This document shows positions 11,929-59,923 of a stretch of DNA of 59,923 nucleotides, piece by piece. The DNA is taken from positions 1-59,923 of IMG/VR virus record IMGVR_UViG_3300020471_000096; one strand, given 5' to 3'. The position numbers and the translations under genes were made by a program. Every line of letters begins with the position of its first letter. The stretch's first letter is position 1. Under the pieces are notes generated by a model, which worked only from the letters and a program-made list of their open reading frames with translations, did not search any database and was not told where the DNA came from. This DNA is from a virus. Its lineage: Duplodnaviria; Caudoviricetes.

Positions 11929-11947
11929 AAAAGTTTACGTAACTTTT
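11929..11947. repeat. Dispersed TTACGTAA palindrome, copy 1
   Basis: AAAAGTTTACGTAACTTTT at the terS stop. Confidence 0.75.
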
Positions 11948-12468
11948 TATTTGGAAATTATACTGTTTAGCTTGTTCAGTAATTCGTTTTCTATTTCTAC
12001 TGATGACCTATCACGTTTATCATCCACCTTTAAAACGTCAGTAAATAATCCATGATGCTTTCCAAGTAATTCTAAACCTTTCAGCCGGACTGCATCAGTT
12101 ACATTTACATCATCAGCCATCTTTTCTATCTTCTGTAATATTACGTCACTCCTTTTGACGCTGTCCATGCTATGCAATTGCTGTTTATGCTCTAATAACT
12201 TATTTATTGTTAAGGTTATGTTAATGTCTGCTCTTAGCTTAGATGCCATTGCTCTTAAAGAATTACCTTTAGTTTTTTCTGATACATTATAGTTGTTACG
12301 ATATGCATCAATATACGTCATATCATTGAATACAATATCCCTACAAAATCCCATTTGCTTTGCTGTCAATTCTGATCCAATAACATTAGATTTTTTACTC
12401 TTATCTTTTTTCGCATTGTTATCACTTACCAATTTTAATTTAGGTTTATTATCTTTTTTATCTGACAT
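11947..12468 (-). CDS. terS: Terminase small subunit
   Basis: LTAKQMGFC...DAYRNNY HTH pattern and LKGLELLGKHHGLFTD; upstream of terL. Confidence 0.85.
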   Translation of the reverse strand: MSDKKDNKPKLKLVSDNNAKKDKSKKSNVIGSELTAKQMGFCRDIVFNDMTYIDAYRNNYNVSEKTKGNSLRAMASKLRADINITLTINKLLEHKQQLHSMDSVKRSDVILQKIEKMADDVNVTDAVRLKGLELLGKHHGLFTDVLKVDDKRDRSSVEIENELLNKLNSIISK

Positions 12469-12480
12469 ATTTTTATCCTC

Positions 12481-12500
12481 AAAAGTTTACGTAAAGTTTT
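12481..12500. repeat. Dispersed TTACGTAA palindrome, copy 2
   Basis: AAAAGTTTACGTAAAGTTTT abutting the terS RBS. Confidence 0.85.
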
Positions 12501-12749
12501 AATATCATGTTCCTTAGACCTGCGACCTTTACCAATGATAGCACTTTATTATCTTTGTTTGTAGTCTCATTTCGTGAAATATTCATTGCTGTCGATTTAA
12601 GAGGCATACAGCACATGTAAGCAGTTTAGGCTGTATTGCTACCTAAAAGTAAGTTTCAGCGTTTTTGTTGTCCACCTTGGATTACAGAAGATTTAGTCTT
12701 AGTAAGTAAAATAATGTTCCTATAAGTTAAATAATATCAACTTTAGTGC

Positions 12750-12778
12750 TTGTATTCTTAGTCTAAAAATTATATATA
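12750..12778 (+). promoter_or_regulatory. Putative early promoter
   Basis: TTGTAT-17-TATATA; predicted +1 near 12783-12785, at the first base pair of the leader RNA. Confidence 0.5.
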
Positions 12779-12784
12779 AATAGG

Positions 12785-12986
12785 ACAGCCTCTGTTTGGC
12801 AACTCGTTTGAACTGTAAAGCAAACATCCCTTTTTTAACCTACTTGGGAAATTAGGATCTCGGAGACCGGAACTTGTTTTGGTCATGACCTCGAAAAGGC
12901 AAGAGCGATACAGCCCCCACAATTCGGTCTGATGAGGATGACGATATGGGCTAGTAGTTTCTTACGAGTTTCCAAATAGAGGTTGT
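12785..12986 (+). ncRNA. ~200-nt structured leader RNA, family not recognised
   Basis: 12785-12807 pairs with 12964-12986 (20 WC, 2 GU, 1 mismatch); nested stems CATCC/GGATG, AGACCGGA/TTCGGTCT, CTTG/CAAG; possible AGCCC/GGGCT pseudoknot. Confidence 0.7.
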
Positions 12987-13023
12987 AACAATTCAAATCA
13001 ATCAAACAACAATGGAGATCATT

Positions 13024-13380
13024 ATGTACAAGAAATTAAATAAAGACGAAATCAAGTTACTCAGACTATTATCTGATGCTTACAACTTTGGAAACATTGC
13101 TGATGTAGATAGTCCAACAGCCACAGAGTTTGGTGGTAAGTTTGTTGGCAACTACGAGACAATGGATTTAGTAAATGGATTAGATCACAATCTAGTTTCT
13201 CAGATTTGTAATCCAATATCTCAGATCATAACCTCGATGATTGGTAAAGAGCTACATGATCTTTGGATCAATGGATCAAACTACGATGTAGATTGGTTAA
13301 TCAATTTTACAGACAGCCAAGAGACAGTTGGCATTGAGCCATCAGAATTTGGTGGATGGAATGTTCCAAATGAAAGTTAA
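13024..13380 (+). CDS. Early hypothetical protein (start MYKKL)
   Basis: GGAG RBS before ATG 13024; acidic. Confidence 0.8.
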   Translation: MYKKLNKDEIKLLRLLSDAYNFGNIADVDSPTATEFGGKFVGNYETMDLVNGLDHNLVSQICNPISQIITSMIGKELHDLWINGSNYDVDWLINFTDSQETVGIEPSEFGGWNVPNES

Positions 13381-13385
13381 AAAAA

Positions 13386-13407
13386 GGGGGGCAAGAAATT
13401 GCCCCTC
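13386..13407 (+). other. GC hairpin with GAAA tetraloop upstream of hammerhead 1
   Basis: GGGGCAA-GAAA-TTGCCCC; A-run on the left could make it a minus-strand terminator; no U-tract on the plus strand. Confidence 0.8.
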
Positions 13408-13460
13408 AACTGTCATCAAGTGTGTGCTTGATCTGATGAGACCAAAAGGTCGAAACAGTT
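13408..13460 (+). ncRNA. Type III hammerhead ribozyme HH1 (cleavage after GUC, C13414)
   Basis: Stem III AACTGT/ACAGTT; stem I ATCAAG-TGTGTG-CTTGAT; core CTGATGA; stem II GACC-AAAA-GGTC; GAAA. Confidence 0.95.
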
Positions 13461-13480
13461 AATCAACTATGGAGTATCAT

Positions 13481-13963
13481 ATGAATAAATATGAACAAAT
13501 TATTAAGAACTTAGAGCAAACCTTTGATGAGTTCGACAGAGAATACATTCAAAGAAAAATTAATGACTATCAAATGAAATACTCAGCCATTAAAAATTGG
13601 TGGAAAGCACCGACTAAAATTAATGGTCGTGTTGATTGGTATCATCTTCACAAAGTTGGTGGTGGCAAATCAATGGCTGAAAAATTGTATGGCATCAGCT
13701 TTCAGATGGTCAGAGAACTTGCTGTCAAAGATGCTGAGGCTGTCATCAAAGCTAGAAATAAAAAGATGGCTCTGAAACTGCAAAGTTTTGGCATCAATGA
13801 AATCTATAATACAAACCTCGTAATGAACTCTGATGGATTTCATGGTTACTACAATGTCAGAACTGACAAAGGTAATAAAACAATAACAATTAGCACAATC
13901 TTATGTGGTGGCTACAATATCCAAGCATTGCACTACAGAACATTGGTTAAAATATCTAAGTAA
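13481..13963 (+). CDS. Early hypothetical protein flanked by two hammerheads
   Basis: GGAG RBS before ATG 13481; C-terminal ILCGGYNIQALHYRTLV motif. Confidence 0.85.
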   Translation: MNKYEQIIKNLEQTFDEFDREYIQRKINDYQMKYSAIKNWWKAPTKINGRVDWYHLHKVGGGKSMAEKLYGISFQMVRELAVKDAEAVIKARNKKMALKLQSFGINEIYNTNLVMNSDGFHGYYNVRTDKGNKTITISTILCGGYNIQALHYRTLVKISK

Positions 13964-13968
13964 AATAT

Positions 13969-13988
13969 GGGGGCAAGAGATTGCCCCC
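13969..13988 (+). other. GC hairpin with GAGA tetraloop upstream of hammerhead 2
   Basis: GGGGGCAA-GAGA-TTGCCCCC; paralogous to 13386-13407. Confidence 0.8.
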
Positions 13989-14045
13989 TTAACTGTAATG
14001 CAATGTGTGTTGCATCTGATGATCTCAAAAGAGTGAAACAGTTAA
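13989..14045 (+). ncRNA. Type III hammerhead ribozyme HH2 (cleavage after GUA, A13997)
   Basis: Stem III TTAACTGT/ACAGTTAA; stem I ATGCAA-TGTGTG-TTGCAT; CTGATGA; T-CTC-AAAA-GAG-T; GAAA. Confidence 0.9.
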
Positions 14046-14063
14046 TCAAATATGGAGACAATC

Positions 14064-14519
14064 ATGAATAAAGAAAAATACTTAGAAAAATCTAAAATGC
14101 TAGTAAGACTATATACCAAATCAGTACAACAAGGTTTGGATGTAAAAGAACTCAGAAGAACAATGAAAAAAATAGCTATCGATGATATGCGATACTATCG
14201 TATTTGTGACGAGTTGGAAGAAAAGGCTAAGAGATTTTCTTACATCTATAAAAACTCAGAGGATGGATACGTTGTTCCTATTACTGAGGGATGCGATTGC
14301 GATGGTGTTCAATATCGAACTGTTGGTAAGCCACAAAAGGCTGTGCCTCTTGTTCTAGAAAAGAATGAAGACGAGGCTTACGAATGGGCAGATGGAACAA
14401 TGGACATTTATTATGTCAAACCATCTGTGGCATTGAGGATGGAAAATAAATCTGTTGATCGTGTAGCTGAGGCTTACGAAAATGGGCATCCACATTCAAT
14501 AACTTTATCAAGCATTTAA
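14064..14519 (+). CDS. Early hypothetical protein (start MNKEK)
   Basis: GGAG RBS; GCDCDGV and AEAYENGHPH motifs. Confidence 0.8.
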   Translation: MNKEKYLEKSKMLVRLYTKSVQQGLDVKELRRTMKKIAIDDMRYYRICDELEEKAKRFSYIYKNSEDGYVVPITEGCDCDGVQYRTVGKPQKAVPLVLEKNEDEAYEWADGTMDIYYVKPSVALRMENKSVDRVAEAYENGHPHSITLSSI

Positions 14520-14547
14520 CCAACCAACTGCAAGAGGAGATACTATA

Positions 14548-15174
14548 ATGCAGAAAACTAAATCAATCATTGCTGACGATGTCGTTAAGCAATTAGCTAA
14601 ACAAGAGCAACAGCACAACCTTTTAAAAGGATCTAACAAGCAGAACTCTGCTGACATGAGTGCTATTAGATTGGATCAGTATGCGACAGCAATGATACCA
14701 ATTAATTCAATACCTAGATCTGATACCGGTAATATTTCAGAGGATGCGACCAATGAATTATTGACCACGTTTCAGACACGATGCGATATGACAAAAGGTC
14801 AAGCTGACTTGTTTAAAAGACATTGTGTACTTTTTACAAACAAGCATGACCTACCATCAAGCAATCTTACCAAGACCTACATCTTGGATCTGTTTGCTAA
14901 GTTGGATATCAAATCCCAAGCTAGTTTGATTAATCACAATAAAGGAGAGGATGTTAAATCTCCATTGGATACAATCATCGATAAGCTAGTAGGTCTGAAG
15001 ACTAAGACCGGTAAGCAAAGAGATGGTTTGATTATGACAGCAAAAGAACTTGAAGAGTTCGAGGTCAGACTAAAGAACAGATTTGAGATTGCTGACAAAG
15101 GTAGGAAAGCAATTGATGATGCTGAGAAAGAGCAGAAAGTTGTAGACAAAACTGTTGAGGCTTTACTCTCTTAA
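14548..15174 (+). CDS. Early hypothetical protein
   Basis: GAGGAG RBS; 208-aa ORF. Confidence 0.85.
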   Translation: MQKTKSIIADDVVKQLAKQEQQHNLLKGSNKQNSADMSAIRLDQYATAMIPINSIPRSDTGNISEDATNELLTTFQTRCDMTKGQADLFKRHCVLFTNKHDLPSSNLTKTYILDLFAKLDIKSQASLINHNKGEDVKSPLDTIIDKLVGLKTKTGKQRDGLIMTAKELEEFEVRLKNRFEIADKGRKAIDDAEKEQKVVDKTVEALLS

Positions 15175-15228
15175 TCAAATGCACAAATTGAGGCACGATT
15201 AATTTCGTGTCTCTGCTTGTTCATTTGA
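15175..15228 (+). other. Long interrupted intergenic hairpin (RNase III-site-like)
   Basis: TCAAATG/CATTTGA, ACAA/TTGT, 3x3 internal loop, GAGGCACGA/TCGTGTCTC; no U-tract. Confidence 0.65.
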
Positions 15229-15260
15229 ACAACAACGACAATAAACAGAGGAGATATTAA

Positions 15261-15566
15261 TTGTCACAAAAAAAAATATTAGAAGATAAACTAATACAAA
15301 GAACAGCTAAACTAGTTGATGCACAAAATGATTTGAAAGATCTTAAATTCAAATTGCATGAGGCTAATACTAAACTAGTTGAAACTGAGGCTCTGCTGAA
15401 AAATGCAGAGTTTATAGTTGATCATGCCATAGAAAATTTCATGGTTAATCAGCTAGAACATCTGACTAATGACCAAGCAATTGATCTAGTCGCTAAGTAT
15501 TTTGGTACAGAATATAAATCAAAGGCTGTATCAATTATGAATAAATTTATCAATCAATCTAAATAA
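15261..15566 (+). CDS. Early coiled-coil hypothetical protein
   Basis: GAGGAG RBS, TTG start. Confidence 0.75.
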   Translation: MSQKKILEDKLIQRTAKLVDAQNDLKDLKFKLHEANTKLVETEALLKNAEFIVDHAIENFMVNQLEHLTNDQAIDLVAKYFGTEYKSKAVSIMNKFINQSK

Positions 15567-15576
15567 GGAGTATCGT

Positions 15577-16653
15577 ATGCGAATACATGAAATGAGAACA
15601 GCAATCAAAAGCTGTATTATGAATAATTGGAGAGTAAGAGCCAATGGGGGCAGTAAGGATAACCTAGTCCATCCTTATGCTGAGAGTGGTGTTGGTCAAG
15701 GCAAGACAACATCTGTCAGATCATTGGTTACTGATCCGGATTTATTATCTTTAGCTAAAGAATTATTTGGCTACGATAAGGATAAGCTAGGCTTTTTAAA
15801 TTTTAGCTTGGCACAGCTAGATCCTAATGAGTATGCCGGTTGGTTAGTACCGGCTAAAGATGGCGAAAGCATGAGAAGATTACGACCTATGTTTGTGCCT
15901 ACTGAGGGATGTGGAATTATATTTGCTGACGAGGTCGCTCAAGCAAACCAAGTTCTGCACAACCTTTTTGGTCAAGCTGTAGATGAGCATCGTGTTGGAG
16001 ATTTTATCATTCCGGATGGATGGGTAATTGTTTCAGCCGGTAATCCTTTATCTGCAAGAGCCGGATCTAATAAGTTGCCATCACAACTTGCTGACAGATT
16101 TGATTTTCTTAATCTTGAGGTCAATACTGACGATGTATTAAGTTACTATGCATCCAATAATGTTGATCACAGAATTACATCATGGATTAAGTTTGATGAT
16201 CAGCATCTGCATAACTTTGATGTATCAGCAACCGGTAATGCTACACCAAGATCTTGCCAACGTGCCGGTGTTTTAATTGGCATGGATATAGATCACAGTA
16301 CATTACGAGGCATGTTGAATGGTCAGATTGGCGAGACAGCATCAGCTAGTTTAATGGCTCACATAAAGCTGTATGAAAAGCTACCGGATTTTGACAGCAT
16401 TGTTAAAGATCCTAGCACTACACAAATACCGGAAGATCGTGGTGTTTTATTTGCTTTGTGTGGATCACTAGCTAGTAAGATGAACATGACAAACTGTGCA
16501 AGTATCCTAACTTATATCCAAAGGATACCGGAGCAAGAGTTCATGGCATTTATGCTTAAAGATGCAGTACTAAGAAACAAGACCTTGGTTACTCATCAAG
16601 CTATGAAACAAGTATTAGGATCTCAAGGTAACTTGAAAGATCTATTACTTTAA
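15577..16653 (+). CDS. MoxR/dynein-related AAA+ ATPase
   Basis: Walker A variant SGVGQGKT, Walker B IIFADE, sensor SAGN, LADRF, TPRS. Confidence 0.88.
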   Translation: MRIHEMRTAIKSCIMNNWRVRANGGSKDNLVHPYAESGVGQGKTTSVRSLVTDPDLLSLAKELFGYDKDKLGFLNFSLAQLDPNEYAGWLVPAKDGESMRRLRPMFVPTEGCGIIFADEVAQANQVLHNLFGQAVDEHRVGDFIIPDGWVIVSAGNPLSARAGSNKLPSQLADRFDFLNLEVNTDDVLSYYASNNVDHRITSWIKFDDQHLHNFDVSATGNATPRSCQRAGVLIGMDIDHSTLRGMLNGQIGETASASLMAHIKLYEKLPDFDSIVKDPSTTQIPEDRGVLFALCGSLASKMNMTNCASILTYIQRIPEQEFMAFMLKDAVLRNKTLVTHQAMKQVLGSQGNLKDLLL

Positions 16654-16662
16654 AACTTTATA

Positions 16663-16694
16663 TCTGTGGTACTGCGTACCTGTAGTGCCACAGA
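16663..16694 (+). other. 13-bp intergenic hairpin
   Basis: TCTGTGGTACTGC/GTAGTGCCACAGA with GU pairs. Confidence 0.65.
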
Positions 16695-16696
16695 CA

Positions 16697-16716
16697 AAAA
16701 CTTTACGTAAACTTTT
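16697..16716. repeat. Dispersed TTACGTAA palindrome, copy 3
   Basis: AAAACTTTACGTAAACTTTT just upstream of the RBS of the VWA gene. Confidence 0.85.
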
Positions 16717-16729
16717 TTTGGAGATTTTA

Positions 16730-17950
16730 ATGCAGAATTTAAAACTAGAAGATAAGTTCTCAAAGATTAGGATACAGCTACTATGGGATCGTGACGATAA
16801 AGGTCATGCTTTTTATGGTGCTGTCTTAGTCAAGATGAAGATTATCGAAAAGAACAGCATCCCAACATTTGCAACTGATGGGCGAGACATATTCTATAAC
16901 AAAGAATTTGCTGAGAGTTTAGATTTCGAGCCACTCAAAGGTGTAGTTGTTCATGAGGTTGGTCATAGATTTCTTATGCACCATACAAGACAGCAAGAAC
17001 GTGATGCTGAGATTTGGAACATAGCATGTGATTTATCAATGAACCAAGTTCTTAAAAGATCCGGTTTTGTTTTACCAAAAGGTGCTTTGTTTGATCCACA
17101 GTTTGATGGATGGATGGCTGAAAAGATTTATAACTTTATCTATCCACAGATCAAAGCTAAACAGCAACAGCAACAGCAACAAGGTCAAGATGGTCAAGGC
17201 GATCAAGGGGATCAATCAGATAATGGCGATCCAACTTGGTTACAGCCACAATCATGGGGCAACATCGAAGACAATGTTACTGAGGGCATGTCTCAAGCTG
17301 AGATCAGCGAAGAAGAGGCTGATGTTAAAGAGGAGATATTCCAAGCTGTCAGACAAGCTAAAGAACGTGGAACATTACCGGCAGAGGTCAAGCAAATGGT
17401 CAAGGTTATGAAACGTGCTGAGATCAATTGGGAAGACGTTGTTGAAAGGCATCTTGAGGGCGATGTTCCTCATAATTATAGCTATCGCAGAATACATAAA
17501 AAGTTCTACTACACTCATGAGATGATTGCTCCAACACTTGAGCATATTGGTGTTGGTCATATTGTTGTGGCTGTGGATAGTTCCGGCTCTGTATCAAATA
17601 AAGAGTTGCAGTATTTTCTTGGTGGTCTCAATGCTATGGCATTAGATCTTAAACCAAAATCTATAACTGTAATTACATGCGACAGCAAAATACAAAATGT
17701 TATCAAGTATGATCAAGGCGATGAAATAAAAATGATATCTGCTGATGGTCGTGGTGGTACATGTGTTATGCCGGTGTTCAACTACATTAAAGAAAATGAT
17801 CTTGAGGTAGACAGCTTTATTTATTTTACTGACATGGGCATATATGATTTTCCTACAGAGGAACAGCCATATCCGGTTCTGTGGGTAAGCACAGACCTAC
17901 GTGCTGATAATGCACCTATTGGTCAAACAACCTATCTGAAAGTGGCTTAA
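16730..17950 (+). CDS. HExxH metallopeptidase-like + VWA domain protein (DUF2201-type), partner of the AAA ATPase
   Basis: TFATDG, HEVGH, WNIACD, Q-rich linker, MIDAS VDSSGS, GRGGT, YFTD; GGAG RBS before ATG 16730. Confidence 0.88.
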   Translation: MQNLKLEDKFSKIRIQLLWDRDDKGHAFYGAVLVKMKIIEKNSIPTFATDGRDIFYNKEFAESLDFEPLKGVVVHEVGHRFLMHHTRQQERDAEIWNIACDLSMNQVLKRSGFVLPKGALFDPQFDGWMAEKIYNFIYPQIKAKQQQQQQQGQDGQGDQGDQSDNGDPTWLQPQSWGNIEDNVTEGMSQAEISEEEADVKEEIFQAVRQAKERGTLPAEVKQMVKVMKRAEINWEDVVERHLEGDVPHNYSYRRIHKKFYYTHEMIAPTLEHIGVGHIVVAVDSSGSVSNKELQYFLGGLNAMALDLKPKSITVITCDSKIQNVIKYDQGDEIKMISADGRGGTCVMPVFNYIKENDLEVDSFIYFTDMGIYDFPTEEQPYPVLWVSTDLRADNAPIGQTTYLKVA

Positions 17951-17976
17951 TGCTACTTTTAGATAAAAACAAGGCT

Positions 17977-18029
17977 CTAGGAACGTCACACAGAGGCGAA
18001 ACGATATGTCTGTGTGTGATTGTACCTAG
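17977..18029 (+). other. Hairpin upstream of hammerhead 3
   Basis: CTAGG/CCTAG outer stem and CACACAGA/TCTGTGTG inner stem. Confidence 0.6.
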
Positions 18030-18042
18030 GGATTTTAACGAT

Positions 18043-18095
18043 GCTGATATAGGAATGTGTGTTCCTACTGATGATTGCGAAAGCATGAAATCAGC
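18043..18095 (+). ncRNA. Type III hammerhead ribozyme HH3 (cleavage after AUA, A18049)
   Basis: Stem III GCTGAT/ATCAGC; stem I TAGGAA-TGTGTG-TTCCTA; CTGATGA; T-TGC-GAAA-GCA-T; GAAA. Confidence 0.9.
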
Positions 18096-18123
18096 CAACT
18101 ACTATCATTATATGGAGTATTTT

Positions 18124-19116
18124 ATGATACATAATTTTGGAAAAAAACAAGATCCTAAATCTCAAGAGTTTAAGGATCAAATAGTCTTAAAGCATTATCT
18201 CAACTTTTTAAACGAGGGATACAAAGCATTTGGATTAAACGAAAACCAAAAAGCTAGTCTAGTAAAAGCCGGATCTAATTATTCATATCATGCAGACGAT
18301 TTATCTGCTGAAGAAAAAGATTTTGTTTTTATGTTTACCAAGCACAAAGATCATTTTGGCAATCATGGTTTAGACAGCATTTACAATTGTAGTGCTTGGA
18401 TCAAGCAACACAGAAAGGCTCGTAAAGATAAGTCTGCCATTTACAGCAATAAGATTGATGGCAAAAAAGTATTTCGTAAAGAACGTAATTACGAGCATGG
18501 TTTCTTCAATGGTCAAGCTGTTAACAGCAAGTATGCTGTACTCACTAATGCCTTTGCTAAAAAATGGTGGGATGACAATATGGCTAGAACCAATGTCAAG
18601 ATTAGTGCTGATGCATTAAGAGCAGAAACAGCTATTAAACCATCTACTGTAGGAAGAGCAGATAATTGGCAGTACTACGAGCATTTCAATGAGGTTTCTT
18701 TGTCTCCATCATGGTTTAAAAATGTCTACATGAAAGGTTTGGCAACAACAGTATACAAAAGCAAAACAGCATTTGTTGCTAGTGCCAAGCCTCTCAAAGT
18801 TTCTGACAGAATTACAGCTAATGGTCTTGAGGCTTATACTGTTGATATCATTACAAGCCACGATGGTATTATCAGCATGGAGAAAGATCTGTATTATTTG
18901 GTTTACCAAACAAAGGCTTGGACAATTGAAGAAACACAGCAAGGCATGGGCAATATACCTTTTAGGGGCAACGACAGAGAAACTGCTCAAACTTACAATA
19001 ATCGTAGGTATAACATAGCTGAGACTATAAACTGTGCATCCTCAAACTTTAGAAGAGCAGAGAATGTCATGAGTGGCAGAGTTCAGCGAAACATACTTAA
19101 TGCAATGGGAGTGTAA
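18124..19116 (+). CDS. Early hypothetical protein (true start MIHNF, not 17950)
   Basis: Leader TATGGAGTATTTTATG matches the other ribozyme-linked leaders. Confidence 0.8.
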   Translation: MIHNFGKKQDPKSQEFKDQIVLKHYLNFLNEGYKAFGLNENQKASLVKAGSNYSYHADDLSAEEKDFVFMFTKHKDHFGNHGLDSIYNCSAWIKQHRKARKDKSAIYSNKIDGKKVFRKERNYEHGFFNGQAVNSKYAVLTNAFAKKWWDDNMARTNVKISADALRAETAIKPSTVGRADNWQYYEHFNEVSLSPSWFKNVYMKGLATTVYKSKTAFVASAKPLKVSDRITANGLEAYTVDIITSHDGIISMEKDLYYLVYQTKAWTIEETQQGMGNIPFRGNDRETAQTYNNRRYNIAETINCASSNFRRAENVMSGRVQRNILNAMGV

Positions 19117-19117
19117 A

Positions 19118-19573
19118 ATGCAAAAAATAAAATTACAAAAGCATCATAAGGATTTGGCTCATGATTTAATTTATGAGGGGATGTCAGACTATGAAAGGAT
19201 GACATGCCCTTATGTTTATCATTCCGGATTTCTGCAAAGAGAATTAGGCAGAAATTATGATGCTGTCAGAACTAAGTTTATGTCCAAAAAAGACAAAGCT
19301 AGAAAACTAAGTAACATCAGAAAGTATAGGTTTTTGCACTTGCAGTATAAAGATCCATTACTAGAGGAGTTACAATCAGCTAATATTCTACTTAATGTAA
19401 AGCAACATCTTAAAGATGAAATTAATTCATATGAAGAGATGCAAGATAGAATTGATGGTGGAGAGCATTGGGAAAATGTTTGCGATCAACCGGAGATTTT
19501 TTCCGGTAGAAATGAACTTGCTGAGAGTTTACTTGATAATATTAATAAATGGGAGAAATCTGATGAGGAATAA
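19118..19573 (+). CDS. Hypothetical protein
   Basis: GGAG RBS before ATG 19118. Confidence 0.7.
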   Translation: MQKIKLQKHHKDLAHDLIYEGMSDYERMTCPYVYHSGFLQRELGRNYDAVRTKFMSKKDKARKLSNIRKYRFLHLQYKDPLLEELQSANILLNVKQHLKDEINSYEEMQDRIDGGEHWENVCDQPEIFSGRNELAESLLDNINKWEKSDEE

Positions 19574-19763
19574 TCCGGATGATTTATCTAATCAGCTTAT
19601 AGCTGTGATTAAAAAAGAAATATCTTCAGAGATAAAAACTTATAAATCACACAGCCATGAAGACGATGTTGATAGTCGAGAATTAGGTATTCTTGATGGT
19701 CGATATGAAATGGCTGTGGAATTAAAAAATGTAATAAAAAAATGGGAGAAAGATAATGGATAA
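19563..19763 (+). CDS. Small protein paralogous to the C-terminus of the preceding ORF
   Basis: GGAG RBS; shared GRxExAxxLxxxIxKWEK motif. Confidence 0.7.
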   Translation: MRNNPDDLSNQLIAVIKKEISSEIKTYKSHSHEDDVDSRELGILDGRYEMAVELKNVIKKWEKDNG

Positions 19764-19947
19764 ATTAGATAGAATATTCTTATTTCTCTTAGGCATTTGT
19801 GTTATGCTTATGTCATTAGTTACTTTGTCTGATCCTAATGGATATTATATGCAGAGTGTAGAGGGCATACTGTTTACATTGTTTATAGGATCAATTGGTT
19901 TAACCATGATACTTGTAAGTTTTTACAGTATCTATTTTAAAGAATAG
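19756..19947 (+). CDS. Small two-TM membrane protein
   Basis: Two hydrophobic segments; GGAG RBS. Confidence 0.75.
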   Translation: MDKLDRIFLFLLGICVMLMSLVTLSDPNGYYMQSVEGILFTLFIGSIGLTMILVSFYSIYFKE

Positions 19948-20240
19948 GGGGAGAGACCACTCCATAATGTGGGCAAAAGTGGATGCCTTTGGTTTATGCA
20001 TTAACCATACGTCAATGCTGTACATCCCTAGATACGTGTACCCTCAAATGTTTTTATTGCACTTGTATTGTGGGCAAAACTGAGGTCTCTTTAAAAATGG
20101 TTCAGTTAATGTACGGAAAGCCACAAAATATGTGCTATGTTCACGATAAAACCTCCATTCGTTATCCAGCGAGGTTTAAGCACATAAAAAAAGGCTCTCA
20201 GAGCCTCGTACAGAGGGGTTGGCAGACCTCTCTGTACGAA
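19947..20240 (+). ncRNA. Candidate structured non-coding region
   Basis: At least six stems, TGTGGGCAAAA twice, and AGAGACC/GGTCTCT complementarity. Confidence 0.4.
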
Positions 20241-20302
20241 ACCTACCAAATCAACCTAGATGCTCTGTACGAAGAGTATTCGCTTATTAAGGGGAAATTC
20301 AC

Positions 20303-20554
20303 ATGACAACAACATACAGCAAACTAAAAGGTAGATCTAAAGGCTACCGGTATCGTAATTCTATTGTAGATCTGCAACGTGAACTCTATCAACGTAATTC
20401 CAAAATGACACCAAAAGAATTAGGAATGGATGAAAGATTTGAAGATGATCCTAGAGCCATTCGTGAAATTGATGTTGGAAGAGTAATTAGAAAACCAACT
20501 GAGGTTATTAAAGGGGCAGTTAATTCTATTTATAATAGTAATAATGGCGAATAA
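20303..20554 (+). CDS. Hypothetical protein
   Basis: AAGGGG RBS; ERFEDDPRA motif. Confidence 0.7.
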   Translation: MTTTYSKLKGRSKGYRYRNSIVDLQRELYQRNSKMTPKELGMDERFEDDPRAIREIDVGRVIRKPTEVIKGAVNSIYNSNNGE

Positions 20555-20588
20555 ATTACTCTTACATTACCCCCTACAGTAGCAGACT

Positions 20589-20608
20589 AAAACTTTACGT
20601 AAAGTTTT
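20589..20608. repeat. Dispersed TTACGTAA palindrome, copy 4 (perfect 20-mer)
   Basis: AAAACTTTACGTAAAGTTTT. Confidence 0.9.
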
Positions 20609-28605: not shown

Positions 28606-28613
28606 GCTAGACT

Positions 28614-28633
28614 AAAACTTTACGTAAACTTTT
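28614..28633. repeat. Dispersed TTACGTAA palindrome, copy 6
   Basis: AAAACTTTACGTAAACTTTT preceded by AGACT, as in copy 4. Confidence 0.85.
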
Positions 28634-28695: not shown

Positions 28696-31600
28696 TCATG
28701 CAGTTTGTCTTATGCCCACACTTCTCATTAACTGAATACCTTTTCTCATGATCTCTTGTATTCGTTCTCTACGTAATTTAATAAGTTTTTGTCTGACATC
28801 ATCTGACAGTCGAAGATTTCGTTCTAACTCCTTGATCTGTCTCAACAATCTGTTTCTTGCGTTGTCTAAAGCCTTAAATCTACCATATATGCGTACCTCG
28901 TCATCGTACCTAGCGATAAGTTTACGTATAGTTTCGGGATCACCTCTTCTTCTTGCTAAGTCAATTCTAGAAAATATCGTGTATAGCTCTTTTCTCTTTT
29001 CTAAATAATTTTGTGTATCTACTCTATCTGACGGCTGTTTTATTACTTTTCTAACAAATGGTATTCTGTTTGGTAAGTTACCCTCAAAGTCTCCGGAAGC
29101 TATAGCCGGTATGACATCAAAAACTAGATTAGCTGATCTACCTATAAAAGCACCAGCACCTCCTATTACATACTCATAAAAATATTCTATCGTGTCAGGA
29201 GATATGTCAATCAAACCACTTTCTACTTCATCTCCAAATGTTAAATCATTTATAGTTTGTACTATAAATTTAGATACAGCACCGGTATTTGTCCAATGTG
29301 TATAAGCATCAGGAACATTCGTTGTTGAGTACATAGGCGTTTCTTTGTATATAGGATCGTTTCTGTAATTTTTATTAATATACATTTCTACTGCCGGTTT
29401 AAAAGCAGTTGGTATTACGTATGTTTCAAAGTTCTCTATTGCACCAAAAGGAGATAATGTTTCCATAGTTGTGTCAAAAATACTATTTGCTGCTTGACCA
29501 AAAGTATATTCGCCTCGTGTGTAGCGGCTAAGAGATCTGCCTAAATTAAATGGCATATTAAGTCCATAAGCCAATGGTATTGCTATAAACTTATCTTCCA
29601 TTAAACCAAAAGATGGAAATATTAAATTATGCTCTAAATCATATTCATTTAATTTATCATAAGTTATTGGATCATCATCTTCTGACGGATCGTCTAAAAA
29701 TGCTAATAGTTGATCTTGCAAAAATCCATAAACTATTATGCCACCTAATATTTTTCTTACCTTTTTAGATTTATAAGCCGCATTGTATATAGCCATACTA
29801 CCTTGCAAGGATGCGTTATAAAATAAATACAAAGAGTTCATAAATACTTTATCTTCACCACCTTTGGCAAAGTTTACCGTTACGTTCCTAGCTGCTTCGG
29901 CAGCCCTAGCATCAGTAAATCCTCTTTTTTTCAAATTAGTAAACGTGGCAACACGTACACCATTCTCAATAACAGTATTGTAATCTTCTAAAAACTGTAA
30001 AAGACTTCTTCCTTTTTTTCTAAAGAATCCATTTCTTTTAAATCCTAATGTTTTAGCTTCACTAATATCCATTAACAACTTACTAAGATTCTCCATTTGA
30101 TCTTGCACAGTTCCCATTTGGTTAGTGGCGTTCTTGCCACCTGCCTTTACAAATTTTAAATATTCTTGTGACCAATAACTAGATGTGTCTGGCGTTCTTT
30201 TGCCAAAAGGATTTGCACCAACACCAAAAACTTTTCTAATCCCATTTATAGCACCAGCAACATCTCTAGTTATCTCTTTTGTAATACCTTCTGCATCATG
30301 TTGTTGTATATTTACTAAAGCTGTTTCCAAGTCTTTTGCAAAGTTTGGAATAACGAAAGCTGGGTTGTAAGAAGTATTAACATTAGATAAAAATCTATTT
30401 AATTTAGATAAAGTTCTAAATGCAACATGATGTGTTTTAGGTTCGTAATGATGCTTGAAAGATCTGGACATACTTTCTCTGTAAAAGTTTACGTAAACTT
30501 GTTGACCATTCTCTTTTATTGCAATCTGATGTGGGTCCATAGGTTCTGCTTCAGTTGTTATTTCTGCAAAATTTTGCTGTAAATCTGTAGCCAACGCATC
30601 GTTTATAGCCGTGCTACCATCAGGTTGTTCTTCTTGACCTCTTAATAATCTTAAAAGACTCTGACCTACTTTATTTCTTTCTGATCTATCTATCGCTCTT
30701 TGGTTTTGGGCAATAACTGATGCAAAAATATTTTCTGCATACTTAATACCACGGCCTCTAGCTACTTTGTCCTCTCTTCCTAAAGCGCCAAAGTAATTAG
30801 TTGTTTTACGTAATGTATTTTGTCTATCCTCTTTCATCTCAACATCAATGTCTAAATCACCACGTAAAGGTACATAGTATTTAAATCTAGCACCCTCTTG
30901 ATGCTCATCGTATTCTGCTTTATCTATTAATCCACTTTCATATCTAATATTATTAGTACTATTAACTATTCTTCTAGTTTGTTTATTGATAAATTGAAAA
31001 ATATCTTTATTTGATTGATCTAAACTGTCAAACCAATCTAATATTACATCAGCTTCAGCCTTTGATAATCCTGAACCATTAGGTCTGGCATAGCGATTTG
31101 CTATATCTATATTTCTCTCTTTTGCATGCATAGCGTAAAGATATATATCTGTTAAAGCTAACTTAACATCTATTGAAGAATCTATAGTTTTGTTAACTAA
31201 TCCCTCTCCTTGCTCTTGCGCAGCGGCTCTAGCAGAGGCATTTTTTAATTCTGTTAATTTTTCATCCGAAACTTTTATTTTTTTAATTTCTTCAATAGTT
31301 GGTTTAACTATAGTTTCTTCTAAATCAGTTAATTTATCTCCTATAATACCTGAAGAATTTACTTCTCTTAGATAAGGGTCCATAGCATCAGCTATTGTGT
31401 AGCCTTTATCACGCAACTCATCCATCATTGCGCCAACAGGTTGAAAAGAGTCTTGATATTTTTGCACTATCTTTTGTGCGGCCTGCGCTCTAGTGTTGCC
31501 AAATAAAAATGACTCAGGCACTACTTTAAATGCTTTAGCCAAAACCCCTGCTAAATTATTATATCTTATATTTAACTGAGCCTGTGCAATGTCACGATCA

Positions 31601-34600
31601 TTTTGCTGTGCCTGTCTTTGTCTCTCACTAGAAGGTGTTGCTCTTATTCTTGAGCGTCTAGTCTCAGGTGTTCCGGTAGAGTCTCTTCCAATTCCGCTGT
31701 CATTTCTGGTATTCCTTCCGGATACATAAGGTCTAGGTAGTTCTGTCTCGTAACTGGCATCCCTACTGAATTGAGGTATTGTATTAGGGGGTCTTGCCCA
31801 ACTTGGTTCCGCAAATCCATCTGGCGTAGCATTTATTATCTCCTGTCTTGTTTGATCTAAAGTTAATCCACCATCTACATATGATCTCCATATGTTATTT
31901 ATTCTTTCAACATTTTGTGTTTCATTTTTAAATGTATCAGGAAACAAACCTCTTATAGCTTCCCATGTTATTGATTGCATTTGCCTTGGCAAAATACCTC
32001 TTTGTTCTGCGGCTCTTGCATAGGCATCATATATTAATCCATACATGCCTCTAACACCTGTAACAGAGGAATTAGGTATGATTCCGTATAGGTCCGCTCT
32101 ACCCTTCGCAGTATATAATCCAAAATTTTGATCTACTTCAAAAGATTTACCACTTAAAGGTTTAAAAAATGCTACTGCAACCGCATGCGTATCTATTGTA
32201 GAATGACCGTCTGGAGACATAGGCGTAATTATATTATTAAAAAAACTTCTAACTTTATGCCTGTCACCAAGTAATACAGATACTTGTTGTAAAGAATTGT
32301 CACCACGCAACTCTAATAACTGCATAGCTTTATCTATAGTATTATTAGAACCCCAACCTGTGCCTTTAGGATCGCCTTGAACACCAAATATGGATTCATA
32401 ATTTGATAGCGTCTTTTTTCCTAACTGTGCTTTCGATGGTTTTTTTCTTGCGTAATCTAAAAATTCACCCTCTGGAGTTATTACTCTATGACCTCTGTCA
32501 TTATATGTTTCATCAAATATTCTAACCCAAAGAGCTTTGTGAAAAGAAAACTGTAAACTATCTAGGCTTGTAGAATCTCTATTAGGATTAGATATGTGCT
32601 TTATAGCAGCTTGTATTGCTTTATTTTTACCGTATATCCTCTTTGCTGTTTTTACCATCTCTGGTGTAAAGTCTTTATCACTATGATTTCTAGCGATATC
32701 CATAACCCTTTCAGCTAATGAAACATTCATATACCAATCTTTTTGTGGTGACTGCACTGCCATAACCGCAGCAACTACTTCAGGAGGATAATTATACGTT
32801 TTTGAAAACTTATCTACTATGTTTCTTGCGCCATCGTACCAAAGAGAAGATCTTTCTCTAATTGTAGGATCTATGGAATCATGAACAAATAATATGTTAT
32901 TTGTCATAGCCTGAATGTGATCTTCTATAATTTCTTCATTTGAAAAGTTTACGTAACGTTTTGCATTTTCTGATAAATTATATTTTTTAATTATATCAGC
33001 AGCATTTTTTGCAAGTTTAGAATCATTCTTTATAAGATCTCCATTTATAAATAACAACTCAGCAGATGGATCTGCCTCTCTTGCTTTTGCGGTAGGAAAT
33101 CTTGTGCTAACTGTATGTTCTTGTCCCACAACTCTGGTTCTAGATCTCATGGTTCTTTTTGCATCAACACCACGTTTTTGGTTTATACCATCTTTATATG
33201 CTTGATCATACTTCTTAGCTTGATACGTCTCTGGCACTCTCAACTCATAAAACATAGCCGCCATAGTTCCACGGAAAGGATCATTTATCCAATAACCCGT
33301 AGCGCCAGACTCTTTAATCATCCTTTCTTTAGCAGTAGTTATGTAATTAACACGACCAGTTGGGTCTTTGATATCAGGTCTACTTTTATCTAATTCTGCA
33401 TTTGCTGCATCGTTGAATTTTTCTGGGTCTGCTTCCCAATCATACATACCTTCATACGGTACATCCAATTCGTATATATTATCTCCTAAGTTTTGTTCCG
33501 GATTATAACCATTAGGATCAGATATATTTACAGCAAAATAGCTTCTAGCAGGATATCCCTCAAAAGTTCTTCTCCTCTCTTCTCCCCGCATAAATAAATT
33601 AGACCTTTGTTTTTCTGGGTCTATGCTTTGGAGGCCCTCGATAGGAGAGAAGTGTGTTAGCTTGACTGTCCTTTGCGGAGATAACTCAGGTTCCCTCCTT
33701 TCTTTTGTCGATTCAATCGTGCTTCGTATAACGCTGCGTCTTCCATCTCTTCTTGCATCTCTTCCTCTGTCAGTTGCATCATCTCTTGTTTCACTAAATC
33801 GTTCATCTTCTTGAATTGCTCTTTCATCTACTGCTCCCTCTATATTATTAGCTAATCCCTCTGTTTGCACAAAATCAGACAGTAAAGTTATCTTTTGATC
33901 TGCGTATATTGTTTCTTCAGCTTTATTTTTGCTATTTCTATTATGGTCTCCAACAGCATCACTGTAGTTAAGCCATGAGTTTTGTCCTCTTGTTTCTGTG
34001 GTCATAGCTCTAGCGGCTAACGGGGTATACATACGGCTATGTGCCTGCCAAGCATTTTCTTCACCTCTAGCTGAAAAAGTAGCACCCTCTAATGCGTGAC
34101 CAAAGTAATCATGAACTATTCTAAATAAATCATTATATCGAGCATCACGACCATCAATTATCTCACCAGTTGTCTGTAATAATGGGTTCTCTGCTATATC
34201 TTGGTCCGTTATAGCATCACTGCCAAAACCATCGTCTGTAGCAAAAACCCACATATGATTATTATTGATATCTTCTAATAAATCTTTAGATGCTCTTGGG
34301 TATGGGTTTGCTTGATTTGGCTTAATAAATTCTATTTGTATTCCTGTATCTTTTATAAATAACCATTGATTAAATGTTTCATCAGCCATAGCTTTGTATG
34401 CTTGTATTACCTCTGGATTAGTTGGGTCATGCTTTGCTTCGTCAAAGTCTTTAGCTATTCTTCTAGCTAACTCTTCATTTACTTGCACATACCTATCAGG
34501 CCTTGTATTAGGCATACCTATCGATTGTAAATATCTAGACTTAACAACATGCGCTATAGGTAAGGGTCCTATAGAACCTCTGTGTAAATCTGGTAATCTA

Positions 34601-41119: not shown

Positions 41120-41129
41120 AACTACCTCC

Positions 41130-41149
41130 AAAACTTTACGTAAAGTTTT
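41130..41149. repeat. Dispersed TTACGTAA palindrome, copy 9 (perfect 20-mer)
   Basis: AAAACTTTACGTAAAGTTTT abutting the lysozyme GGAGG RBS. Confidence 0.9.
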
Positions 41150-41435
41150 ACTTTTTGTGCGCTTTCCTTATGCTTTCTTTGCCTCTTTTAAATATACTAG
41201 CTACTTTATTTTTACCCATCACCTTTGCTCTCTGCTCACCAACTGTAAGAATCTGTATCTTTCTCGCAAAAGGTTTACTGACTCTCTTAACTTTTGCAAC
41301 CGTAGCTCTTGCGTCTGCTTCTGTGGCAAATTTGATACCGACTGTATCTTTTGGGTTCTCATCTGTGTATAAGCGTCTGCCAGAACCTTTTGGTTTTTTT
41401 CCTGTTCCAACTTTAGGATCTCTTTTTTTTGCCAT
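41148..41435 (-). CDS. Small basic hypothetical protein
   Basis: RRLYTDENPKDTVGIKF motif. Confidence 0.75.
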   Translation of the reverse strand: MAKKRDPKVGTGKKPKGSGRRLYTDENPKDTVGIKFATEADARATVAKVKRVSKPFARKIQILTVGEQRAKVMGKNKVASIFKRGKESIRKAHKK

Positions 41436-59646: not shown

Positions 59647-59846
59647 TTGTTCTTAACCGCACTATTTAGTGAATTTATAACATCATCTATATTAGGCTCT
59701 TTTTGCCAAGGATTGTAAACACATTTAAACTTCTTTGGACACCAGCTTTCGATCATCATCTCGTATGTTTCATTGCCACCTTTGTAAATACACGCCATCA
59801 TACCAGTTTTTGATTTAATTCTTTTGGAAAGCCTACATGTTGTATA
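59643..59846 (-). CDS. Probable C-terminal Cys-rich part of the 20-589 gene across the circular junction
   Basis: Open frame YTTCRLSKRIKSKTGMMACIYKGGNETYEMMIESWCPKKFKCVYNPW...KNK*; its TGA overlaps the ATG at 59646. Confidence 0.6.
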   Translation of the reverse strand, partial: YTTCRLSKRIKSKTGMMACIYKGGNETYEMMIESWCPKKFKCVYNPWQKEPNIDDVINSLNSAVKNK

Positions 59847-59923
59847 TTTTTTTTTTTAGTTTTACCCTGCCATATTTTTTGCTGTTTAGTATAATCTTTC
59901 GGTTTATATGTATAACCATCAGC
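59814..59923. repeat. Terminal direct repeat, right copy
   Basis: Matches 1-109 with one extra T. Confidence 0.97.

Follow-up and report, generated by a model that had tools for sequence, protein, structure and literature searches.

Hairpin-hammerhead cassettes between the genes of a marine phage: candidate self-cutting punctuation of its messages

Among the closest described systems are the prophage clusters of Perreault et al. (2011; PMC3088659), whose text describes multiple hammerhead ribozymes that often flank single genes or small gene blocks of varying identity, an arrangement taken there to imply that long phage transcripts are processed to operon- or gene-length mRNAs; three prophage arrangements are reported to cleave in vitro and one in E. 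coli. The same text treats the haloviruses HF1 and HF2, in which a hammerhead lies 13 nt before an early gene, the first of a polycistronic transcript, and a mapped transcript 5' end falls no more than 3 nt from the cut. A 2019 review (PMC6765202) repeats the idea of transcript cutting and states that more work is needed, that the roles are largely elusive and that the purpose is undefined. Here we analyze a cluster of three type III hammerheads on the + strand of a marine tailed phage, IMG/VR record IMGVR_UViG_3300020471_000096, the whole 59,923-base stretch of which is referred to below as the window. The hammerheads lie between genes of the block at 13012-20554, and the original prediction, made from the sequence alone, was that they cut the message of this block into units. 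This reading is plausible and is a standing hypothesis rather than a new one: the cutting of phage transcripts by clustered hammerheads was proposed in 2011 (PMC3088659), and the original prediction had overstated its novelty. What is added here is a 53-nt form with its own loop signature, an abutting upstream hairpin, a fixed distance to the start codon, an orphan-gene context, gene shuffling and a blind spot of Rfam. We found no description of this cassette in the open literature searched; supplements such as Dataset S1 of PMC3088659 may already list the subclass.

In the prophage clusters of Perreault et al. and in the window alike, clustered copies lie on one strand and bracket phage genes (here gene B, and the block from gene C to the DUF2201 gene), the same role has been proposed, and the U10.1-U11.1 variant occurs. 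Unlike those clusters, the present copies belong to a free, complete marine phage genome and are all of one stereotyped form, type III and 53 nt long, behind a hairpin that abuts the ribozyme and at a near-fixed distance from the start codon. The halovirus hammerhead, as its source presents it, also stands a few nucleotides before a gene, but HHphage is a structurally unusual high-salt variant found as a single copy in an archaeal virus, whereas the window holds three intergenic copies with a standard core.

The three copies align gap-free over 53 nt. All share one order of parts: each opens with the 5' strand of stem III, then U16.1 and H17; next come a 6-bp stem I with a UGUGUG loop and the word CUGAUGA, followed by a 4-bp stem II with an AAAA or GAAA loop, GAAA and the 3' strand of stem III. 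The full core CUGAUGA...GAAA and the cleavage sites GUC, GUA and AUA, as originally described, were present in all three copies, and the elements lie where they had been placed (53-nt cores in Table 1; stem III of the second can be extended to 13989-14045). The predicted ends also agree, with 13415, 13998 and 18050 as the predicted first nucleotides of the downstream (5'-OH) products. Covariation within the genome was evident: 95.8% of pair cells were standard and 12 of the 16 pairs were changed on both sides, while no shuffle out of 500 matched the observed pairing and sliding the partner strand by one to three columns left 31-44% paired. Across the window, CUGAUGA followed 12 nt on by GAAA occurred three times on the + strand and the reversed-pattern control not at all; a looser core pattern gave seven matches against 1.22 expected, a number reached in 0/100 shuffles.

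Thermodynamic folding recovered the three-way junction as the minimum-energy structure in copies 1 and 2 and as the centroid in copy 3. In copy 3, the minimum-energy structure was a competing fold (-14.7 kcal/mol, against -14.5 kcal/mol for the hammerhead centroid) in which the core word paired with the stem III 3' strand; because the first five letters of the core are repeated in the 5' strand of this stem, its 3' strand can take the core as partner instead. Folded together with its hairpin, each element was unusually stable: 13381-13470 gave -31.5 kcal/mol (z -4.85) and 13964-14055 gave -29.3 kcal/mol (z -4.20), with 0/200 shuffles as stable in either case, and 17965-18100 gave -44.2 kcal/mol (z -5.38). 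Three helices, with loops closing stems I and II and an open stem III, are supported by covariation, but in copies 2 and 3 stem II is not fully paired, as a U-U mismatch stands at its first position, 10.1/11.1; a G10.1-C11.1 pair is found in copy 1 only. U10.1-U11.1 is described as a natural hammerhead variant with the best activity among mismatches (PMC3088659), and as a published active variant it is no bar to membership of the hammerhead class.

R1, a covariance model built from the three window copies, scored them at 75.5-79 bits (E about 1e-21 to 1e-22). With filters off it revealed no fourth copy in the 59.9-kb genome, where the next match reached 18.4 bits and had no core. Rfam, which had been put forward as a check, gave a different picture: a gathering-score scan of the whole window returned no match, and a permissive scan of 13300-18200 returned only copy 1, below threshold (Hammerhead_1, 22.2 bits against a gathering score of 34, in an alignment that borrows a false stem I), the rest being noise. 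This silence could be taken to mean that the elements are chance look-alikes or dead relics without activity. The same silence extends to relatives, since none of 48 R1 hits in 12 other loci reached an Rfam hammerhead threshold, and we conclude that it reflects the curated models more than the elements, in which the class-defining features are present. The R1 E-values and the shuffle results above argue against look-alikes, as does conservation of the core in 120 distinct sequences, in which only N7 varies, and the orthologue of hammerhead 3 is kept in a relative of 70-80% identity (locus L043), site included, with compensatory changes in stem II. The comparative data already contradict such an explanation, to which we give next to no credence, and we regard it as nearly certain that the three elements are genuine hammerheads.

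The seed pattern used to collect relatives demands UGUGUG (the loop I word), CUGAUGA (the core word) and GAAA, so rows that match it are enriched in these words by design; it was found in at least 118 IMG/VR stretches. Eighteen distinct 53-mers found by the model alone had the same core. R1 confirmed hammerheads in 114 of the 118 fetched loci, with 194 hits that reduce to 147 distinct sequences and to 120 distinct 53-mers. The first 80 loci contributed 131 rows, which reduce to 105 distinct sequences; 87 of these are distinct 53-mers and were tabulated, while the other 18 differ in length and were only listed. Among the 105, in an alignment that was fitted to the model and so leans toward structure, 93.8% of pair cells were standard, stem I was paired throughout (100%), 15 of the 16 pairs were compensatory, and double-change cells numbered 633 against 180 in shuffles (0/500 as high); the U16.1-A15.1 pair was kept in all 104 cells with letters.

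The catalytic core is conserved across these relatives, as the original prediction required. GAAA was present in 120/120 of the distinct 53-mers, H17 was C in 63, A in 48, U in 9 and never G, and the core word was CUGAUGA in 113, CUGACGA in 4 and CUGAAGA in 2; one row is misaligned by an insertion, and apart from it core variation is restricted to N7, the sole free position. Positions 10.1/11.1 held G-C in 67, U-U in 48, A-A in 4 and G-U in 1. The subclass signature is a UGUGUG loop I and an RAAA loop II: among the 87 tabulated 53-mers the 5' U of loop I was invariant (87/87), the penultimate U nearly so (85/87), and the 3' A of loop II was again invariant (87/87). In L060, two copies differ from those of the window only at N7 and at one loop letter. 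Wherever a locus held several copies, all lay on one strand (41/41 loci), with a median spacing of 1110 nt.

For viroid hammerheads, a loop-loop motif has been defined by NMR and mutagenesis and proposed for most natural hammerheads (Dufour et al. 2008; PMC2632901): according to that account the 5' U of loop 1 pairs with the 3' A of loop 2, a pyrimidine of loop 1 is extrahelical, and loop 2 usually takes the form AAAA or GNRA. The type III hammerhead of CChMVd described there resembles ours in its stem lengths (about 6 bp for stem I and about 4 bp for stem II), a loop 1 that starts U-G and has a penultimate U, and an AAAA/GNRA loop 2 with an invariant 3' A. The differences are that loop 1 is a heptaloop in CChMVd and the hexaloop UGUGUG here, that the tertiary contact is read from sequence in our case, and that CChMVd is a rolling-circle RNA replicon whereas the present elements would act in the mRNA of a DNA phage. 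The loop letters fit the motif and, judged by sequence only, what activity at low Mg2+ requires appears to be in place.

A loop-loop motif points to fast, constitutive folding, which bears on the possibility that cleavage is conditional and that some copies act as switches responding to ions, temperature, upstream translation or a factor. The near-equal competing fold of hammerhead 3 would suit a switch, the stem III type of this copy recurs together with the AUA site in relatives (e.g., L043, L077, L082 and L063), the U-U and AUA variants may be slower, and regulated cleavage has been raised for phage hammerheads in the text of Perreault et al. (PMC3088659). Against this, we saw no extra conserved domain or ligand pocket, and the length is near-invariant (53 nt in 120 of the 147 distinct sequences). 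We consider switching improbable as the main explanation.

Each ribozyme forms part of a larger cassette: a stop codon is followed by a hairpin that abuts the ribozyme, and about 21 nt separate the ribozyme from a start codon. The layout first noticed in the window (stop, hairpin, ribozyme, spacer, ATGGAG, ATG) holds in all three copies, with the GGAG-preceded start 20, 20 and 28 nt after the ribozyme. For the wider survey, 134 hits (131 plus the 3 of the window) were reduced to 106 non-redundant cassettes by removing those shorter than 50 or longer than 57 nt, those without CUGA[U/C/A]GA, those too near a locus end and those with identical ±60-nt context. In these cassettes a same-strand open reading frame (ORF) of at least 40 codons starts a median of 21 nt after the ribozyme (quartiles 17 and 24), where the first in-frame ATG, GTG or TTG is counted and some distances are thereby shortened; a stop codon lies upstream in 97 of the 106, a median of 32 nt before the ribozyme, and in 64 the last paired base of the predicted hairpin touches it. 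The hairpins are strong by comparison with random 45-mers (-13.45 against -5.5 kcal/mol in the 106 cassettes), which is too easy a control. Over 169 cassettes, the 45 nt before the ribozyme had a median of -13.1, against -5.5 and -5.9 in fixed windows of 383 hammerhead-free same-strand gaps (p about 1e-25).

Each of the three genes has two possible starts (13469/13481, 14052/14064 and 18112/18124): the ATGGAG word supplies one ATG, and another, in frame with it and properly spaced from GGAG, follows 12 nt further on; in some relatives the two ATGs are out of frame or the first is absent. Gene B could thus begin at ATG 13481, preceded by GGAG at 13471-13474. For the gene after hammerhead 3, GGAG at 18113-18116 lies 7 nt before ATG 18124, and in-frame ATGs also occur at 18112 and 17950. 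The intergenic position claimed for copy 3 is only partly borne out within the window itself, since the ORF at 17950-19116 stays open through the site in this genome; an in-frame stop 6 nt before the start in L043, together with the GGAG 7 nt before ATG 18124, favors an intergenic reading of copy 3.

This regular geometry also bears on what the cassette is for. The hammerhead might mainly make the 3' end of the upstream message without stopping the polymerase, the downstream leader being a by-product. The hairpin is a partner at a fixed place against the ribozyme, as expected of such a 3'-end device, and stem III, not a U-tract, comes after it, which sets it apart from canonical terminators of the + strand; a Saccharibacteria ribozyme of the same form (L167) has a + strand ORF before it and a convergent RNase HII gene after it, and no gene on its own strand comes next. 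In the phage cassettes, however, a same-strand ORF starts within 150 nt in 106/106 cases, and the tightness of the start-codon distance argues for the downstream gene as part of the design; in addition, in loci L083, L005, L011 and L046 the cassette stands before the first gene after a long non-coding region. We judge a pure 3'-end function unlikely.

Table 1. Positions of the cassette parts, genes and repeats in the window
Feature	Position	Strand	Description
Genome record	59,923 bases		IMG/VR whole virus record; CheckV 100% complete; IMG/VR class linear
Gene A	13012..13380	+	122 aa; without Pfam or PHROG family; last gene before hammerhead 1
Hairpin 1	13386..13407	+	9-bp G+C-rich stem, GAAA loop; 3' end abuts stem III of hammerhead 1
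Hammerhead 1	13408..13460	+	Type III; GUC; predicted cut 13414/13415; 10.1-11.1 G-C; R1 76.2 bits
Gene B	13469..13963	+	164 aa from ATG 13469, or 160 aa from ATG 13481; without known family
Hairpin 2	13969..13988	+	8-bp G+C-rich stem, GAGA loop; directly 5' of hammerhead 2
Hammerhead 2	13991..14043	+	Type III; GUA; predicted cut 13997/13998; U-U at 10.1/11.1; R1 79 bits
Gene C	14052..14519	+	155 aa; alternative start ATG 14064 after GGAG
Four-gene stretch	14548..17950	+	Without hammerhead in between (no core-bearing R1 match)
Unknown genes of four-gene stretch	14548-15174, 15261-15566	+	
MoxR-like ATPase gene	15577-16653	+	In four-gene stretch (phrog_1297 2.9e-52 cited for the stretch)
DUF2201 metallopeptidase/VWA-like gene	16685-17950	+	PF13203 1.3e-36, PF09967 4.1e-18
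Hairpin 3	17975..18031	+	Long, imperfect; 11 nt 5' of hammerhead 3; coordinates from centroid structure
Hammerhead 3	18043..18095	+	Type III; AUA; predicted cut 18049/18050; U-U at 10.1/11.1; R1 75.5 bits
Gene after hammerhead 3	18124..19116	+	330 aa from ATG 18124; without known family
Palindromic repeat, first four sites	11929-11949, 12481-12501, 16691-16716, 20583-20608		
Palindromic repeat, last four sites	28608-28633, 30474-30500, 32934-32963, 41121-41150		

The same cassette was found before different genes in related contigs, as had been proposed for a survey of relatives; flanking sequence and BLAST coordinates placed the differences between the window and relatives of 90-96% identity exactly at cassettes. 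The gene order is B-A-C in L071. In L022, one different gene replaces B, hammerhead 2 and C, and the ribozyme there is a mosaic with the stem I of copy 2 and the stem II of copy 1. In L083, A through C are replaced by one gene behind a hairpin and hammerhead, and L060 carries other sequence in place of gene A. Copy 3 stays after the DUF2201 gene in all four. The genes that follow ribozymes are small (median 105.5 aa in 154 non-redundant complete ORFs) and mostly orphans: at most 19 of the first 150 ORFs, those scanned, had a Pfam family. Those with annotation include MoxR-like ATPases and DUF2201 proteins as well as an ArdC-like anti-restriction protein and a DNA ligase, and head, tail or packaging proteins are missing from the descriptions of the 24 PHROG families matched. 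This content fits an accessory or early-type region, which is not proof of timing.

These rearrangements raise the question of whether the cassette is mainly the boundary of an exchangeable gene, a recombination substrate or semi-selfish repeat whose RNA cleavage is secondary. Such a role would agree with the breakpoints at cassettes in L071, L022, L083 and L060, with the small orphan genes downstream, and with the cassettes at 13378-13489 and 13961-14072, which form a 112-nt direct repeat of 72% identity. A role at the DNA level leaves the catalytic conservation, the absence of G17 and the covariation unexplained, however, and equally the strand consistency with genes in 41/41 loci; shuffling is moreover an expected side effect of any dispersed repeat. 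We think it quite improbable that gene exchange is the primary role.

In the explanation that we favor, the ribozymes would be transcribed within the + strand messages of the block, would fold as they are transcribed and would cut themselves after H17 at the three predicted sites. The upstream piece would then end in the strong hairpin, the 7-9 nt of the stem III 5' strand and a 2',3'-cyclic phosphate. The downstream piece would have its 5'-OH directly at the foot of the stem I hairpin (its first nucleotide was paired in the cut-leader folds of copies 1 and 3) and would keep the remainder of the ribozyme as a constant leader, with the start codon 20-28 nt past the ribozyme. The type III layout and the abutting upstream hairpin would together leave a hairpin flush with each new end. 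The block would be split in four, namely gene A, gene B, gene C through the DUF2201 gene, and the genes from 18124 on, and the ends and leaders of these units would be independent of neighboring sequence, so that stability and translation could differ by unit. Sequence, fold, covariation, placement relative to genes and recurrence of the cassette are observed; we infer cleavage in vivo, co-transcription of the block and the effects on stability and translation; the cut ends would be protective if what is generally known of 3' exonucleases and 5'-end-dependent RNases applies here.

Two well-known arrangements help to place such a device. The early transcript of T7 is cut between genes by host RNase III, with hairpins at the ends of the products; there a host enzyme leaves 5'-phosphate and 3'-OH ends, whereas the self-cutting RNA supposed here would end up with 5'-OH and cyclic phosphate termini. 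RiboJ is an engineered leader hammerhead that removes variable upstream RNA and leaves a constant downstream leader. Its hairpin lies downstream and exposes the ribosome site, in contrast to the conserved hairpin here, which lies upstream and would be kept by the upstream product; the cassette may act as an insulator, though its construction differs from that of RiboJ. We consider self-cleavage in infected cells likely. For mRNA segmentation or insulation as the selected function the balance tips only slightly in favor, and for the explanation as a whole, active type III hammerheads cutting the block mRNA into units, we hold it to be the probable one, with some reserve.

Several observations weigh against this explanation. 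A 5'-OH may protect or expose an RNA depending on the host RNases, and the glmS ribozyme, which likewise self-cleaves a bacterial mRNA leader and leaves a 5'-OH product, provides an unfavorable precedent in the review cited above, where that product is degraded; glmS differs in needing a metabolite, and its cleavage leads to decay of the downstream mRNA (PMC6765202). Copies 2 and 3 carry U-U at 10.1/11.1, and copy 3 combines it with AUA and a near-equal competing fold, so that cleavage rates may be low or conditional. Strong hairpins are not peculiar to cassettes: when the best 45-nt window was taken in 332 hammerhead-free gaps, the medians were equal (-13.1 against -13.1, p 0.99). Strong hairpins are common in long gaps, and only their position hard against the ribozyme is special. 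A scan for sigma-70-like promoters found 27 sites against 33.8 expected, none of them convincing upstream of 13012. R1 had no match in HTVC027P, HTVC023P, 023Pt_psg01 or DSL-LC04, where an empty result proves little; its silence in HTVC027P and HTVC023P suggests that the elements are dispensable in the wider lineage. Alignment of contigs from one DNA run and from three RNA libraries placed two contigs of the latter on the stretch, at 17591-17753 only; they reach no ribozyme, cannot show ends and are uninformative on expression or cleavage. Equally uninformative on cleavage is the count of metagenome contigs that start at a predicted product 5' end, which was 0/126 pattern matches in 118 stretches.

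We had also considered that cleavage opens the ribosome site. This candidate was dropped, as the cut-leader folds gave it no significant support; in copy 2 the cut leader had a z of -0.32 and GGAG was paired with a stem II strand in the predicted fold.

The cut ends might instead be rejoined, by reversal of the hammerhead reaction or by a ligase, to give spliced or circular RNAs, the ribozymes then delimiting an excised RNA. RtcB-type ligases join 2',3'-cyclic phosphate and 5'-OH ends, which lends this idea some chemical footing. Rejoining is named as a possibility by Perreault et al., in whose account such products went undetected (PMC3088659). In the phage, neither RtcB (PF01139) nor RNA ligase (PF09414) was found by searches that matched both in control genomes, and the segments between the ribozymes are ordinary protein genes. 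We consider rejoining very improbable, and self-cutting of the block mRNA into units remains the explanation that we prefer.

The genome around the block is that of a tailed double-stranded DNA phage, with genes for portal, large and small terminase, primase/helicase, exonuclease and a 2,874-aa polyvalent protein. The large terminase (TerL) is 54% identical to that of Pelagibacter phage HTVC027P and 52% to that of HTVC023P, the nearest cultured relatives. The ends of the record are identical over ~110 nt (1-109 and 59814-59923; repeat families D2 and D12), an identity with one of two origins, a terminal repeat or the overlap of a circular assembly. The stretch is present, whole or in part, in 20 DNA rows from 11 studies, all of them marine/seawater, and no RNA run was listed for it; GenBank phages gave no DNA match for 13000-19200. 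Of roughly a dozen gene junctions in the block, just 3 have a ribozyme. The only Pfam match of gene C was below threshold (PF16800, 18.9 bits against a cut-off of 29.9). A search for the T7-like RNA polymerase family PF00940 gave zero matches in the phage and equally in the controls.

Several features of the non-coding DNA accompany the cassettes. Read on the minus strand, hairpins 1 and 2 (13388-13405 and 13969-13988) are followed by T-rich runs and have terminator-like scores; antisense transcripts entering the block could be halted by them. In other phages, the A-run behind this signal is not general to the cassette. Before gene A lies a 543-nt non-coding stretch (12469-13011) with CUGAUGAG at 12929-12936 and no complete hammerhead. 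In L083, L005, L011 and L046, a hairpin and hammerhead precede the first gene, followed by the same spacer as stands before gene A here, and the window may hold a broken or rearranged fourth cassette at this point. A palindromic repeat of ~20 nt with the core TTTACGTAAA occurs in about eight copies, mostly in gaps between genes or transcription blocks (Table 1), and is a candidate operator or promoter-linked site. One copy lies at the MoxR/DUF2201 junction, inside the unit bounded by hammerheads 2 and 3, which may thus be controlled separately. The repeat is also a place at which assembly contigs of a DNA run break.

The 53-nt form also occurs outside phages. It is common in Patescibacteria (CPR): R1 had 90 hits in 67 of 80 fetched GTDB loci (L126-L205), and 55 of the 67 positive genome loci are Patescibacteria by record title, some on contigs of 0.4-1 Mb. 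In an even sample of Patescibacteria, 9 of 151 genomes had a match. The Saccharibacteria ribozyme mentioned above (L167:4100-4152) follows a 138-aa ORF, with the convergent RNase HII gene opposite, among ordinary chromosomal genes, while L129:3339-6411 packs six copies into 3 kb, with two tRNA genes and a PemK/MazF-like ORF nearby. We found no relevant paper in the open literature that pairs hammerheads with Patescibacteria. In Cellulophaga phage phi18:3 (NC_021794.1), a hammerhead-like element was recognized by eye at L364:2994-3049, in the gap between gp050 and gp049. Its stems II and III are closed and its stem I is open, it has CUGAAGA and a GUC site, and it reaches only 15.6 bits with R1, which returned nothing for this phage at E <= 0.01, an empty result that proves little there. 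The gap, 90 nt long and unannotated, falls within a series of tiny genes; an annotated ArdA gene lies ~900 nt downstream of it.

The cassette recurs in at least 169 non-redundant copies. It is possible, though we rate it as less likely than not, that hairpin, hammerhead and leader form a portable, self-sufficient module of gene punctuation that sets both message ends, travels with small accessory genes and serves as a swap breakpoint between marine phages, the form in Patescibacteria being the cellular face of one device. If this were true, message ends would be set without a host nuclease or terminator, by a device that annotation at Rfam thresholds has overlooked. A common environmental hammerhead form that scores below those thresholds is under-counted in phage and metagenome annotation. 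What phage hammerheads are for is a question that the locus does not itself answer, but it provides a clean and regular test case, and the regularity of the cassette turns a vague idea of polycistron processing into specific predictions on RNA ends, half-lives and translation.

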